64,000 bases of DNA from Candidatus Latescibacterota bacterium (GTDB lineage Bacteria > Latescibacterota > UBA2968), in contig OZ220741.1 in NCBI GenBank assembly GCA_965116885.1, positions 4,832,001 through 4,896,000 on the forward strand. Direction: 5' to 3'. The notes under the pieces are model-generated. The model was not told the origin of the DNA. It did not search any database and saw only the letters and a list, made by a program, of their open reading frames with translations. A program made the translations under genes and the position numbers. Numbering within the stretch: position 1 is the stretch's first letter; every line of letters begins with the position of its first letter. This document shows, in pieces, positions 34,155-39,397 of the stretch.

Positions 34155-34193
34155 AAAAAAGAGCGGCAGGTTGCAAAAACCCACCGCTCTTTT
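34155..34193 (-). terminator. Terminator closing the sigma/TPR/mini-RNAP unit
   Basis: AAAAGAGCGG...CCGCTCTTTT inverted repeat ~20 bp after the stop; a degenerate copy lies at ~29424-29460. Confidence 0.8.
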
Positions 34194-34213
34194 GCGCTTC
34201 CAAGCTTCCTTTT

Positions 34214-37200
34214 TTAATCGTCTATCGGCAACCCCACAAATAATCGACTGTATTCATCTGTCAATGGATCGCGCTCGCCCTTTTGCGCTGCGCGGGCAAA
34301 TACCACACCCGGCTTTTCCGACCTGCGCGCCCGCGCCAAAACGCCATATCCACCTGGCGCACTCTGCGTTTCCAGATCGCTCTGAATCGCCAGCATCTCC
34401 GCCAGCGCATTGGCCAAACCCCAGCGCGCACCAATCGCCCGCGCAAAAAGCTCCTCTGGCGTCAGCCCCTCTCGAAAACCGTGCTTCAAGGGCGTAAATC
34501 CACCCTGGTCATTCCGCGTCACGCCCTGGGGAGCCACATAAAGTCTAACCTGCTGCCAATTGGCACGCGCACCACATGCCACCAGAAGCGCGGGAATCCC
34601 GAGATCATCGTCGTCATATTCGCGAAACTGCGCCAACACAGCCGACACCTCATCGGGATAATCGCGCCAGACATCTGGGTCATCGCCCTCTGGCGGATCG
34701 GGCCAATCGCGCGACGAACCGATAAACGCACTCATCGACGCACCTGTCTTGCGCGTAGCATCAAAACCCCGATCCCACAATCGCGCAGATAGATCCAATG
34801 CCGCCTTCGAGCCATCGCGCGCCATTGCAGCCGCCATCCAGTCCATCACCTGATACTTATCGACAAATAACCCCTTTCGCTCAACCTCATCGCCGACAAT
34901 CTCCGCAATCTCCTGCAACCCCTCGTCCGTCATACTCATATACGCCAGGCCAAACAGCGCGTCGTGCATCGGGTGTACCTTCTCCCGTGCAATCAGCCCT
35001 GGATCCCGATTTAAGTGAGCTACTGCCGACAGATGTTCTTCAGCCGACCGCTGTCCCTCTTCAGTCACCGGCACAAAAATCGCCACCTGATCGCCATCAA
35101 AATCCATATTCATCATCTTGCAAATCGCCACACTCACGCGCACAGCATCGCCTTTCACGCGTACCGGACGACACGCCACAAAAGCCATTGGCGAAAACGC
35201 GGGATTGCGAAGCACCACAGTCCATAACTCAGCCATAGCCGCATCCAGCGCTTTCTCCGCTTTTTTTGACCGCCTATCCACTTCTTCAGTCCCCACCTCT
35301 CGCGCGGCAAACGGCCCAAACAACGTCCACGCCATCTCTTCGGGCACACCGACCTGATCGTATCGCAATTCAGGTGCAGGCACAGCCACTGAACGCCCGC
35401 TGAACAACGCGCGCGCCTGAAATTGCAAACGCGACAACTCGCAAAATGCGCGAACTCGCTCAGACAGCGTCTCGACCACACGATCCACCAATATATCTGG
35501 CGCGCCATTGGCAATCATCTCACTCAAGCGGTTGTTGGCCTCTCGCAATTCTCGGGGCACATCTCTCCCACTCACATGAGTCAACGAATGCCCCGGCAAC
35601 CACGGATGCGGAACCGAACGCGCAAGCGCGACATCCCCACTGCGCTTCAACGAAAACTCGATGCCGCGTTCATCCAGTTCAACAGCCACCCCACCTTTTG
35701 ACAAATGCCCAATTAGCTCATCAAACTGAGGGGAAGGCGCATTAGGAGTAACAGGTCCCGCAACGACGCGGTCAGATAGAGTATCGGCATCATCTCGATC
35801 TACCGCGCACGTATTGAACAAATCGCCAATCACCCCAAAAGCACCCGCTTCTCGCAACGCCAAAAACTCTGTCTCGCCCAACCCCTGGCTTCGCTGATCT
35901 AATTTTACACTTCCGGGAACGGCTTGGCGAAGATCTGCGGCGGTTTGACCTAACTCTCGATCTCGTTTCCCCAGCTTCACACCAGCCTGAATTTTATCCG
36001 CCGCCAAATGCACCGTGCGTCCCCAATACACCCACCCTACAGTGGTGCGACGCGGCAGCGTATCCCCATTTAGCGTCAACGCCTCCATACCGTCTTCTGC
36101 CAGCTCTAAACCTTTCAAACGAGCGCGTATCTCATCGTCTTTTGGCGCATTGAGCGCGGGAATAATAACCGGCTCCCCCTCGGCCTTTGCAATGCGCCCG
36201 ACCACAGCTTCGCGTACCTGTCCAATATTCAACCGCGACGGCAAACCACACACACTTACAATAAGCTCCACAGGCGTGCCATCCGGCAATTTGGGCATAT
36301 CCTCATCTCGCAAAATGCGCGACACCACCCCTTTAAAACCGTGTCGATTACTCAGCTTATCACCCGGCGCAACGCGATTGGGCAACATCATCCGGTTCGC
36401 CGCGGATTCGCTGATCACAACTGCGTCTTCATGTGTATCTCCATTCCACGCCATAAACGCGGTCAGCAAATTGTACCCCGTCCAGAAATGCGGATCGCGC
36501 GGTTCACACCCCGTTTGCACCAGCGCGGGTTCCGACTCCAAGACGGGTTTGAAACCCGTCTCTACATTGCCGTCATATTGCGCGTGATACGCGTGCCACG
36601 CGCCCTGTTCATCGCGCTGCATATCGGGACTCGGCGCGCCAATCCACTGCCGCATCATATTCACGCCCATCAAAACGCGATTGGTATCATTGTGTTCCAA
36701 AAACGGAACCACCGAAGCGCCTATCCCCAACCGCTTTTCAGGTGCATCGTCTTCAATCACCAGCTTGCCATCGCGAATAGTTGCCCCCTGAGCCACCTCT
36801 AAAATCCGCGCGAGATTCGGTCCCTCGGGCGTGCAATATGGACACACGCGCCCATCGTGCGACGGATGATAGCAATTCTCTATCCCCTCATCGGCCTCAC
36901 CGATAATTGGGATCAACGTCACCCGCCGCAAATGAACGTACATATCCTGCAAATTGGTCGCCTGCAAAGACTGTGATGTGGGTTCTTCCATAAAAAATGT
37001 GTGAATCCAATCCCCCAACGGCAACCATGTTTCAACGGCATCTCCCAGCATCTCTGGCATATTTTCCAACCGCTCGGCAATATAATCGCGCAATTGCTCC
37101 CCTACACACCGAATCTCAGCCCGCGCCAAATCCACATCAGTCGGCACGGGAACCACCGTTAAAAAAAAGCCATCTACCTTAAACCGTCCCCAATCGTCGG

Positions 37201-37393
37201 ACTGAGGGATATCTTTGTACACAACCTCTTGTCCCCCCTGAATCGCGAGATGCAATTCACAGGTATATTCATCCACCGACACCACCCGATACCCCGCCAG
37301 CGACACCCGATCTGTCAACAATTCGGGCAACTTCTTTTGAATAAACGCATCCCACGAAATTTTATGCCACGGCGCCTTAACTGAAAGACTCAT
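34214..37393 (-). CDS. Miniature single-chain RNA polymerase beta/beta-prime fusion (two-barrel polymerase homologue)
   Basis: beta motifs in order: [95 protein letters not shown]. Then beta-prime motifs: [29 protein letters not shown]. Start 37393 follows an AGAGGAG RBS. Confidence 0.9.
36541..36565 (-). repeat. GTAG-type REP-like palindrome inside the coding sequence
   Basis: Minus strand GTAG-AGACGGGTTT-C-AAACCCGTCT, perfect 10-bp inverted repeat, read as VETGFKPV. Confidence 0.6.
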
Positions 37394-37465
37394 CAAATTT
37401 CTCCTCTCTATGTTAAAAGACACTTCTCAGAGAACTGTATCGCTCTTCTGCCTGGTGTCATTTTT

Positions 37466-38642: not shown

Positions 38643-39236
38643 TTACCCCCTCCCATACCTCCGCCCCCATGCCTCTGCGAGTTGCTTGCGCGCGTGGAAC
38701 AGCCGCGACTTCACCGTACCTTCTGGAATCGCCAGCCGTTCGGCAACTTCTCGAAGCGCCACCTCATCTTCGTACACCATCTGAAATATCTCGCGTTTTT
38801 CCTCTGGCAACGCATCGATCAACGCCTGCAAAATGCGCCGTTGTTCAGCGCGTTCCAACTGCACATCGGGTCCCAGCGCAGCCCGATCGATCATCCACCC
38901 TGGAACGGGTTGTTCTTCGTCCTCCTCATCGTAAAGCGAAGGCATTTCCAGAGGCTGTTCGCGACGGCGACTTTGGCTTCGCAATTGATTCAGCGACAAA
39001 TTTCTCGCAATCCGAAACAGCCATCCCCGAAAAGACCCTTGCCCCGACCATTGATCGGCCCGATTCCAAACTCTGAGAAAAACCTCCTGTGTCAAATCAT
39101 CTGCAGCGACCGGATCCCGCGTTATCCAACGCAGACTCTCGGCCACCTGTGCCTGGTAGCGCGCAAACAGAATCGCAAAAGCCTCTTGATCCCGCGCCAC
39201 AATTCGCTGCATCAAAATCGCGTCCGATGGTGTCAA
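38643..39236 (-). CDS. ECF-type sigma70 factor
   Basis: Region 2 DLTQEVFLRVW...FRGWLFRIARN; region 4 EVAERLAIPEGTVKSRLFHARKQL; TTG start 7 nt after AGGAGG. Confidence 0.95.
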   Translation of the reverse strand: MTPSDAILMQRIVARDQEAFAILFARYQAQVAESLRWITRDPVAADDLTQEVFLRVWNRADQWSGQGSFRGWLFRIARNLSLNQLRSQSRRREQPLEMPSLYDEEDEEQPVPGWMIDRAALGPDVQLERAEQRRILQALIDALPEEKREIFQMVYEDEVALREVAERLAIPEGTVKSRLFHARKQLAEAWGRRYGRG

Positions 39237-39258
39237 AAAATATCCTCCTGTGGGAATC

Positions 39259-39290
39259 GACACCGCCCAATGCCCGAAGGTTCAAAAAAA
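39259..39290 (-). promoter_or_regulatory. Candidate ECF-type (autoregulatory) promoter
   Basis: Minus strand TTTTTTT-GAAC-N18-GTC just upstream of the sigma RBS. Confidence 0.55.
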
Positions 39291-39367
39291 GTGTGATCCG
39301 CAGATGAATGCAGATGAAAAAGGTGTGAAGGACCTGATCTCCGCCAGCGGTGCGTCCACCCAGATAT

Positions 39368-39397
39368 AAAAAAGCGCAGTCCTGTGAGACTGCGCTT
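39368..39397 (-). terminator. Rho-independent terminator insulating the sigma operon from upstream genes
   Basis: AAGCGCAGTC-CTGTGA-GACTGCGCTT; the flanking A6 reads as a U-tract on the minus strand. Confidence 0.85.

Follow-up and report, generated by a model that had tools for sequence, protein, structure and literature searches.

An ECF sigma factor paired with a single-chain beta-beta' polymerase: a conserved two-gene unit in Latescibacterota and other bacterial phyla

Fused or reduced relatives of the multisubunit RNA polymerases (RNAPs) have been described from several sources. YonO, encoded by the Bacillus prophage SPbeta, is portrayed as a single chain of about 100 kDa that is related to the multisubunit polymerases, has no recognisable trigger loop and shares few active-site residues with the multisubunit enzymes; no sigma partner is named for it (PMC5467207). 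Orf6 of the yeast linear plasmid pGKL2 is outlined as an Rpb2::Rpb1-like fusion of 982 amino acids (aa) from which about half of the sequence has been deleted (PMC2919709). Here, we describe a locus of Candidatus Latescibacterota bacterium that recalls these systems in part and differs from each of them. It lies in a stretch of 64,000 nucleotides (nt), positions 4,832,001 to 4,896,000 of contig OZ220741.1 (assembly GCA_965116885.1), which was analysed as a whole and is called the window hereafter; all coordinates without a locus name refer to it. On the minus strand of the window, between 34155 and 39398, a gene for a sigma factor of the extracytoplasmic function (ECF) type is followed, in the same direction, by a gene for one polypeptide in which parts of beta and beta' are joined, the mini-RNAP. 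The two genes, together with their promoter, are referred to as the cassette.

By sequence, the closest relatives of the mini-RNAP are the canonical beta and beta' subunits. With the canonical core it shares the EGPN fork, the MGxNMMRQ, FED, GDKxxxRHGxKG and FSGR motifs, a motif of the NADFDGD type, the bridge helix and the clamp helices, and the cassette shares with the canonical ECF systems a two-domain sigma factor and a promoter of the GAAC / GTC type with a fixed spacer. However, canonical beta and beta' are separate (together 2,638 aa of open frame in this genome), whereas the mini-RNAP is one chain of about 1,030-1,060 aa in which no lobe, flap, beta' N-terminal zinc region, rudder segment, trigger loop or jaw was detected. 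Full-length beta::beta' fusions (PRK14844 / PRK09603) have the same order, beta and then beta', and are the best NCBIfam matches of the mini-RNAP, but they consist of complete subunits (models of about 2,840-2,890 positions); the mini-RNAP is only about one-third as long, and its score is 170 bits, the cut-offs being 4,632 and 5,372.

The remaining systems were compared by their published descriptions, in so far as these cover the features concerned. YonO is likewise a single chain with no recognisable trigger loop, but the mini-RNAP is plainly derived from bacterial beta/beta' (Pfam E 8e-39) and is linked to a sigma factor, which sets the two apart. A tblastn search of a phage collection at E<=1e-5, in which the presence of SPbeta was not verified, returned no Bacillus phage in the organism tallies or among the matches listed. 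Closest by architecture is pGKL2 Orf6, of similar size and with the second-largest subunit fused ahead of the largest, and YonO comes next in a looser sense; Orf6 belongs, however, to a eukaryotic plasmid, is of eukaryote-type descent and lacks a sigma factor, whereas the mini-RNAP is chromosomal and accompanied by one. Closest by logic are the non-virion polymerases of the jumbo phages AR9 and phiKZ, portrayed as reduced, non-canonical enzymes with a dedicated sigma-like promoter-specificity subunit, but those are multi-subunit, split phage enzymes with highly diverged sigma-like proteins, in contrast to a fused chain on cellular chromosomes with a bona fide ECF sigma factor. All three features together, the single fused chain, the place on cellular chromosomes and the true ECF partner, are seen in none of the systems compared, and full-text literature searches, which were not exhaustive, returned no description of a sigma-linked fused mini-polymerase. 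A protein atlas holds several other single-chain clusters (1,221-1,787 aa, 50-109 members) with both Rpb2_6 and Rpb1_2, so that more kinds of fused polymerase may exist.

The mini-RNAP gene extends from 34214 to 37393 (minus strand). Its open frame is slightly longer (34214-37423, 1069 aa), and the ATG at 37393, which gives a protein of 1059 aa, is the likelier start because the relatives begin at the aligned Met. Rpb2_3, Rpb2_6 (8e-39) and Rpb1_2 (2e-15) of Pfam are found in the one chain, and in the NCBIfam models the first half aligns to the C-terminal part of rpoB and the second half to the middle of rpoC, with equivalog scores far below the cut-offs (170 vs 801 bits for TIGR02013, rpoB; 113 vs 963 bits for TIGR02386, rpoC). 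The chain carries the signature of the two-barrel RNA polymerases, Rpb2_6 together with Rpb1_2, with the motifs NMDFDGD and HED in the window protein; in such enzymes one double-psi beta-barrel bears the DxDGD metal site and the other the Lys/Arg-rich element GDKxxxRHGxKG. Its parts follow one another as a reduced beta N-terminus, the fork, the beta barrel and the beta C-terminus in the first half, and as the beta' clamp helices, switch-2/FSGR, the beta' barrel with NMDFDGD, the funnel, the bridge helix and a short tail in the second.

What has been kept and what has been lost was mapped by aligning a profile of 31 family members to the beta and beta' of the same genome; the domain names attached to the aligned intervals are those that we take to apply from knowledge of the canonical enzyme. 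From beta, the fork with EGPN (455-539) and the barrel segments 611-781 and 1036-1263 are kept. From beta', two blocks are kept: 266-524 (profile 561-783), with the clamp-helix hairpin, FSGR/switch-2 and the barrel with the metal-binding motif, and 563-783 (profile 779-965), which reaches the start of the bridge helix and ends in a GSRKGLAD.. segment. Traces of the beta N-terminus and of the beta' PVxHxW motif may survive as well, to judge from weak profile matches. The map showed no counterpart for beta 163-454 (approximate limits; the lobe region) or beta 782-1035 (the flap region), for most of beta' before 266, or for a stretch of about 25 residues at the rudder; nothing aligned to beta' 784-1372 (trigger loop and jaw), only about 55 residues following the bridge helix. 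Profile searches against the PDB agree with this map, and align the clamp-helix segment with M. tuberculosis beta' 341-383. An AlphaFold2 model (predicted local distance difference test, pLDDT, 71; predicted template modelling score, pTM, 0.61) has a confident helical hairpin at the clamp-helix segment, residues 624-661 in the numbering of the 1069-aa form, and, at low confidence, a long helix at 989-1020 that may be the bridge helix. A fold search with the whole model found only bacterial beta' chains, at low template modelling scores (0.26-0.28), and added nothing to the sequence map.

The catalytic motifs are well conserved in the family. Of 31 representatives, 27 have DFDGD, and nearly all have GDKxxxRHGxKG, EGPN and MGxNMMRQ; identity across phyla is 41-50%. 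The window polymerase also has an insertion of about 30 residues (35885-35987; residues 470-503, approximately, of the 1059-aa form) that is absent in close relatives and is modelled at low confidence; in a contig of a relative from an RNA library (see below), a different stretch of 31 bases stands in place of the insertion region.

The mini-RNAP has at least 578 homologues, and the descriptive details given here are those of the 120 listed. Most of these are 1,000-1,070 aa long, and every one that bears a name from its source is a 'hypothetical protein'. When one genome per species was scanned, 187 stretches encoding the protein came up, of which the best 80 loci were retained for a survey of linkage; they are labelled Latescibacterota, Poribacteria, Gemmatimonadota, Planctomycetota, Chloroflexota and Hydrogenedentota, at least six phyla (loci of the survey are numbered with L, genomes of the phylum Latescibacterota with G). 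Several little-studied phyla thus hold the family, and many of them are animal-associated, to judge from the labels of the RNA libraries in which it is found. The proteins of the window were searched against the six-frame open reading frames (ORFs) of the 80 loci, two of which begin inside the polymerase gene. Among the other 78, which have upstream DNA, a sigma homologue was found upstream of the polymerase and on the same strand in 77, the sole exception being L033. For 72 pairs both genes could be delimited: stop and start codons overlap in 24 (mostly as ATGA), the gap is 0-25 nt in 13 and 26-150 nt in 19, and larger gaps of 151-1000 nt (six pairs) and above 1 kb (ten pairs) make up the remainder. 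In a genome with two cassettes, a sigma gene stands beside each. When longer proteins that include this sigma factor were sought, one record of 640 aa came up (P0121); sigma region 2 is joined in it to the N-terminus of the polymerase, and it was considered as a natural fusion of the two partners and was not counted as one, because the junction consists of about 60 unrelated residues and region 4 is missing; it looks like a frameshift or read-through on a contig of 2.1 kb.

Co-occurrence was examined in 168 genomes of the phylum, with thresholds of E<=1e-100 for the polymerase and E<=1e-35 for the sigma orthologue. The polymerase was found in 62 genomes, the sigma orthologue in 62, and both in 59. 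Two of the three genomes that seemed to have the sigma factor only carry the polymerase directly downstream, as found by profile search, and in the third the sigma gene lies at the end of a contig. The three genomes with the polymerase only are degenerate: the sigma gene is frameshifted in L076, the polymerase is N-terminally truncated in G151, and in L033 (genome G148; 6900-7003 of the locus) the promoter and the sigma gene have been cleanly deleted, the sequence that precedes the promoter being joined to the start of the polymerase gene. No sigma orthologue was found elsewhere in the L033 genome at E<=1e-20.

The trees of the two proteins have 18 of 28 splits in common (shuffled mean 0.28, maximum 3), and the pairwise distances of sigma and polymerase among the representatives are correlated with r = 0.87. 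Such congruence is expected of linked genes and by itself is no proof of contact. The preliminary description of this locus, drawn from the sequence of the window, had proposed that the sigma factor and the mini-RNAP form a transcription module of their own, and had suggested a survey of neighbourhoods for a conserved adjacent ECF gene and a comparison of trees. Both have now been carried out, and the module of sigma and polymerase stands, on linkage and tree congruence as given above, on a distinct sigma clade and on a conserved promoter of its own (both below). We conclude that the sigma factor and the mini-RNAP are a dedicated, co-inherited pair; a conserved unit of two genes is what the survey supports.

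Within the phylum the cassette has a patchy distribution: it is present in each of the 20 other genomes of the genus, and other families range from 0/13 to 31/76. Patchiness of this kind (62/168 genomes; over the families, 0/13 to 24/30), together with transposase or recombinase genes near the cassette in a few loci (L023, L017), could be taken as a sign that the cassette was left behind or is carried along by a mobile element such as a phage or plasmid and has no cellular role. We consider this very improbable. No relative was found in a viral contig collection and no plasmid matched at E<=1e-30; phage records match at no more than 33% identity over no more than 44% of the query, and the annotated ones among them are canonical rpoB/rpoC. 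The flanks consist of varied housekeeping genes, the presence of the cassette throughout the genus is not patchy at all, and the polymerase tree largely tracks the phylum labels (5 changes are needed, where the minimum is 4 and shuffling gives 15.5 on average).

The sigma gene occupies 38643..39236 (minus strand). Its open frame is 38643-39263, and a GTG at 39263 is a possible upstream start; the TTG at 39236, which stands behind AGGAGGA and gives 197 aa, is the likelier one from the alignment with relatives. Sigma70_r2 (residues 32-100) and r4_2 (143-195) of Pfam make up a two-domain architecture without regions 1.1 and 3, which places the protein, in agreement with the alignment of its orthologues, among the ECF (group 4) sigma factors; TIGR02937 is matched with 122.5 bits (cut-off 42.9). 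No NCBIfam equivalog or subfamily reached its cut-off, the best being PRK12513 (125 bits vs 206), and the main text and one supplement of the ECF reclassification paper mention neither Rpb2 nor Rpb1. The genome encodes 14 paralogues of the sigma factor, the best of which scores 81.5 bits, as compared with at least 158 bits for full-length RNAP-linked sigma factors of other phyla. By this comparison the sigma clade stands apart from all of these paralogues and is, as judged from the scores, dedicated to this polymerase. The linker between sigma2 and sigma4 is usually variable in ECF sigma factors. In an alignment of 31 orthologues, it contains a conserved, family-specific motif, VPGWMID..GPD, which suggests a partner-specific contact.

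A co-transcribed cognate anti-sigma factor is typical of ECF sigma factors, if not universal. None of the three proteins of the window operon (see below for the third) gave a match to an anti-sigma family or contains an HxxxCxxC motif or a strongly hydrophobic window of 19 aa, which bears out the earlier remark that no typical membrane-bound or zinc-binding anti-sigma (ZAS) gene follows the sigma gene.

The upstream regions of the sigma genes of different phyla have a single motif and nothing else in common, TGAACY-N14-(C)GGTGTC, which ends about 20-24 nt before the start codon. In the window it reads TGAACC-N14-GGTGTC (GAAC-N16-GTGTC; 39259..39284, minus strand) and lies about 22 nt 5' of the sigma start. 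GAAC-N16-G[CT]GTC was found within 200 nt upstream of the sigma gene in 66 of 72 loci, with a spacer of exactly 16 nt in 65 of the 66; by our estimate, chance would give about 0.0015 occurrences per locus. A -35 element that contains AAC, set at a fixed distance from a -10 element of the GTC type, is the layout of an ECF-type promoter, and ECF sigma factors commonly drive their own operons. Most likely, the cassette's own sigma factor reads TGAACY-N14-GGTGTC, and the cassette would be autoregulated for that reason. The strict motif has a single site in the 5.56-Mb genome, at the cassette (five shuffled versions gave 0-2). Relaxed motifs are not enriched (23 vs about 32 expected; 62 vs about 120), and three relaxed non-coding sites lie near gene starts, none of them with the extended consensus. 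In each of five further complete genomes, 1-6 strict matches were counted (controls 0-1), one per genome being the promoter of the cassette; of the ten extra matches, eight are inside ORFs of at least 150 aa.

We propose, with a probability that we put at roughly one in two, that the autoregulated sigma factor and the single-chain polymerase form a holoenzyme that initiates at the cassette promoter. The conserved ECF-type promoter would drive the cassette and be read by the cassette's own sigma factor, region 2 of which would dock on the retained beta' clamp helices of the mini-RNAP; a two-protein holoenzyme of about 1,250 residues would then initiate at that promoter without depending on the host core. 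In bacterial holoenzymes, sigma region 2 docks principally on the clamp helices. A physical partnership of sigma and polymerase is the most economical explanation in view of the surviving clamp helices, the translational coupling between the genes, a sigma clade found only with this polymerase and the conserved linker motif. Tentatively, we go on to suggest a minimal sigma-dependent machine (a beta-beta' chain of about 1,030-1,060 aa and an ECF sigma factor of about 200 aa) that is orthogonal to the host polymerase and has a private promoter. Since the flap, lobe, rudder and trigger loop have been lost, the enzyme would be expected to be simple and processive, with little response to hairpin pauses, terminators or the factors of the host enzyme.

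A number of observations weigh against this proposal. In canonical holoenzymes the beta flap positions sigma region 4. In the mini-RNAP this docking site is deleted, yet the promoter keeps a -35-like GAAC at rigid spacing, an arrangement that suits the flap-bearing host core at least as well. Moreover, the motif searches in this genome and in the five others revealed no regulon beyond the cassette, as the strict promoter is found only at the cassette and the extra matches are mostly inside ORFs. The same facts can be put together in another way: the sigma factor would use the host core only and switch on its own operon, and the mini-RNAP would be a sigma-independent effector polymerase that starts without a promoter, on templates such as single-stranded or nicked DNA or RNA, as in other single-chain two-barrel polymerases. 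This would account for a canonical ECF promoter layout that needs region 4 on the flap, which only the host core has, and for an operon that, with no other copy of the promoter in the genome, looks like the sole target of its sigma factor; YonO, a single-chain relative, is described as transcribing without a known sigma factor (PMC5467207). We nevertheless hold it to be unlikely, for it leaves unexplained why the clamp helices were kept across phyla when most other peripheral domains were pruned, and it sits poorly with a tight translational coupling that suggests a stoichiometric partnership, with a linker motif that points to a partner-specific contact, and with a complex prediction that is weakly positive.

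That prediction, of the sigma factor with residues 1-800 of the polymerase and with alignments, gave an interaction prediction score from aligned errors (ipSAE) of 0.42 (runs 0.52, 0.40 and 0.42; best control 0.00), in a calibration in which the mark was reached by 116 of 157 solved complexes and 2 of 215 mismatched pairs, with scores of at most 0.60 in 18 of the 157 and in both mismatches. Both partners had a pLDDT of 65 or more, and agreement between the runs extended to 18% or more of the contacts. The multimer prediction, put forward in the preliminary description as a check, is thus rated by the tool as weak support for binding; the score is perhaps a memory of solved holoenzymes, because a sigma factor on the clamp helices is a textbook pair.

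Further points against the proposal come from the active site and from genomes that have lost the sigma factor. In 4 of the 31 representatives another residue stands in place of the first metal-binding Asp (N in L052, L056 and L069, Y in L063), and the beta Glu-Asp pair varies in four (L066, L069, L070 and L072). Such members may be inactive or altered enzymes, and because of the substitutions at metal ligands catalysis is perhaps not required in every lineage. An intact polymerase ORF without a working sigma gene occurs in two genomes, the deletion mutant L033/G148 and L001/G077, in which the sigma factor is truncated. The contigs from RNA libraries (see below), finally, give weak evidence of transcription and no proof of a single transcript. 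As an observation apart, the lineages with active-site variants (NFDGD, YFDGD or an altered Glu-Asp pair) keep full-length ORFs and a linked sigma gene.

The mini-RNAP might also be a mimic of the core that acts as the anti-sigma factor, capturing the ECF sigma factor on its clamp helices until a signal arrives, with polymerase activity secondary or absent; retained clamp helices fit this as well as they fit a holoenzyme. The gene is placed as anti-sigma genes are, directly downstream of the sigma gene and often overlapping it, no other anti-sigma factor was recognised, and the metal-ligand substitutions of some lineages and the lack of a visible regulon are in keeping with the idea. But a decoy does not need about 1,000 residues with barrels, fork, bridge helix and Mg motifs conserved across phyla at the identity given above, nor an intact DFDGD in all but four of the representatives, and if the operon were the only target of the sigma factor its sequestration would regulate nothing else. 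We regard this explanation as improbable.

If a working holoenzyme of sigma factor and mini-RNAP does exist, as we favour, it would be the smallest known sigma-dependent polymerase of cellular type, and promoter-specific initiation by a multisubunit-type polymerase would need no alpha, omega, flap, lobe or trigger loop. The family would amount to a natural deletion experiment on the parts needed for catalysis and for sigma-directed initiation, the positioning of the -35-binding domain of a sigma factor without a flap would become directly testable, and two genes with one promoter would provide a compact orthogonal expression system. If the protein were instead a core mimic that titrates its sigma factor, it would represent a new class of anti-sigma factor. 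Either way, this is a family of hundreds of proteins in several little-studied phyla, with nothing but 'hypothetical protein' for the named records among those listed.

In the window, the two genes are part of a run of three ORFs in the same direction on the minus strand, with a strong terminator-like hairpin at either end. A single contig of 5.56 Mb makes up the genome, with normal rpoB and rpoC about 340 kb away and the mini-polymerase in one copy. The gaps between the genes measure 31 nt (between the sigma gene and a middle ORF of 381 aa) and 72 nt (between that ORF and the mini-RNAP gene), and Shine-Dalgarno-like sequences precede all three starts, in line with the preliminary description, which had reported three co-oriented genes with ribosome-binding sites and gaps of about 30 and 70 bp. 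It had also placed a terminator on each side. Both hairpins were found: one of 16 pairs followed by a T-run at 34157..34193 (minus strand), 21 nt past the stop codon of the polymerase gene, and one of 12 pairs with a T-run at 39371..39398 (minus strand). The latter, however, ends the two-gene unit that precedes the cassette and not this operon, of which it marks the 5' boundary; in close relatives this hairpin abuts the T-tract of the promoter. A scan of 10 kb gave 15 terminator-like sites (shuffled mean 11.4, so that the total is not counted as an excess), of which these two are the strongest. Hairpin-dependent pausing reportedly requires the flap, which is also said to modulate termination (PMC5467207), and it may be speculated that a flap-less enzyme might, for that reason, ignore the hairpin at 34157-34193. 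A weak sigma-70-like promoter match, ATGACA-16-TACAGT (9/12; 37434-37461, minus strand), lies in the 72-nt gap; such matches are no more numerous in the region than expected by chance.

Each of the three genes is matched by metatranscriptome contigs, which come from four libraries of sponges and corals. A contig identical to the window bridges the junction of the 381-aa ORF and the polymerase gene (37351-37594), and a contig of a relative bridges the junction of the sigma gene and the 381-aa ORF (38406-38963). Contigs of this kind may derive from DNA and are silent on transcript ends, strand and level, and the parts that they leave uncovered carry no meaning.

The 381-aa ORF (37466..38611, minus strand) belongs to no established family. 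The preliminary description had taken it for a tetratricopeptide repeat (TPR) protein and a component of the module, as an assembly factor or sensor. Its matches to TPR models are below the Pfam gathering scores (TPR_12, 16.8 bits vs 30.1; TPR_1, 13.6 vs 27.8), and its distribution does not agree with such a part. It occupies the slot between sigma and polymerase in 3 of the 21 genomes of the genus (G000, G084 and G085) and in only 1 of the 80 surveyed loci (L010). The ten gaps above 1 kb are all insertions, L010 with the 381-aa ORF and nine loci (L001, L003-L007, L009, L012 and L013) with the gene of an ABC half-transporter (about 597 aa, ABC_membrane and ABC_tran); in about 60 loci nothing stands between the two genes. 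The neighbourhood survey rules out the third gene as a member of the module: because it is rare in the slot, which in relatives holds the ABC gene or nothing, the 381-aa ORF is a local passenger, a lineage-specific insertion in an insertion-prone slot, and not part of the mechanism. The spacer between sigma and polymerase (37394-38642 in the window) is a hot spot for insertion in this genus, although the two genes are otherwise translationally coupled.

The flanks of the cassette were surveyed in 32 representative loci. Among their 145 flanking ORFs, from which two very long ORFs of L072 were left out, no recurrent partner was found; the genes are varied and unrelated housekeeping genes, and in many of the loci the next gene downstream is convergent. 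In the window, the unit upstream of the cassette (39430-41404, minus strand) consists of two genes with an overlap of 8 nt, for a protein of 344 aa and for an ORF of 315 aa that belongs to no family. In the 344-aa protein nothing is recognisable apart from a DksA/TraR C4 zinc finger (residues 43-77), a motif known from secondary-channel-binding proteins of the polymerase. The unit adjoins the cassette in L001-L011, L013-L015, L019, L022 and L024 and not in the other loci. The 315-aa ORF is present in 90 of the 168 genomes of the phylum, including all 15 of one genus without the polymerase, and in some genomes of the window's own genus it lies far from the cassette. The zinc-finger protein and the 315-aa ORF were considered as members of the module and rejected, as they adjoin it only in part of the Latescibacterota loci; the 315-aa ORF is treated as synteny.

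Downstream of the cassette in the window (30968-34068, minus strand) are genes for a BlaI-type repressor (128 aa) and for a BlaR1/M56 protein of 904 aa with five TonB_C repeats. The BlaI/BlaR1 pair also follows the cassette in the close relatives L001-L015 and L019, and some loci have a second copy. In L017, a Latescibacterota locus, a protein of 481 aa encoded downstream of the cassette (10872-12314 of the locus), beside a recombinase fragment, joins sigma regions 2 and 4 of the ECF type to ankyrin repeats.

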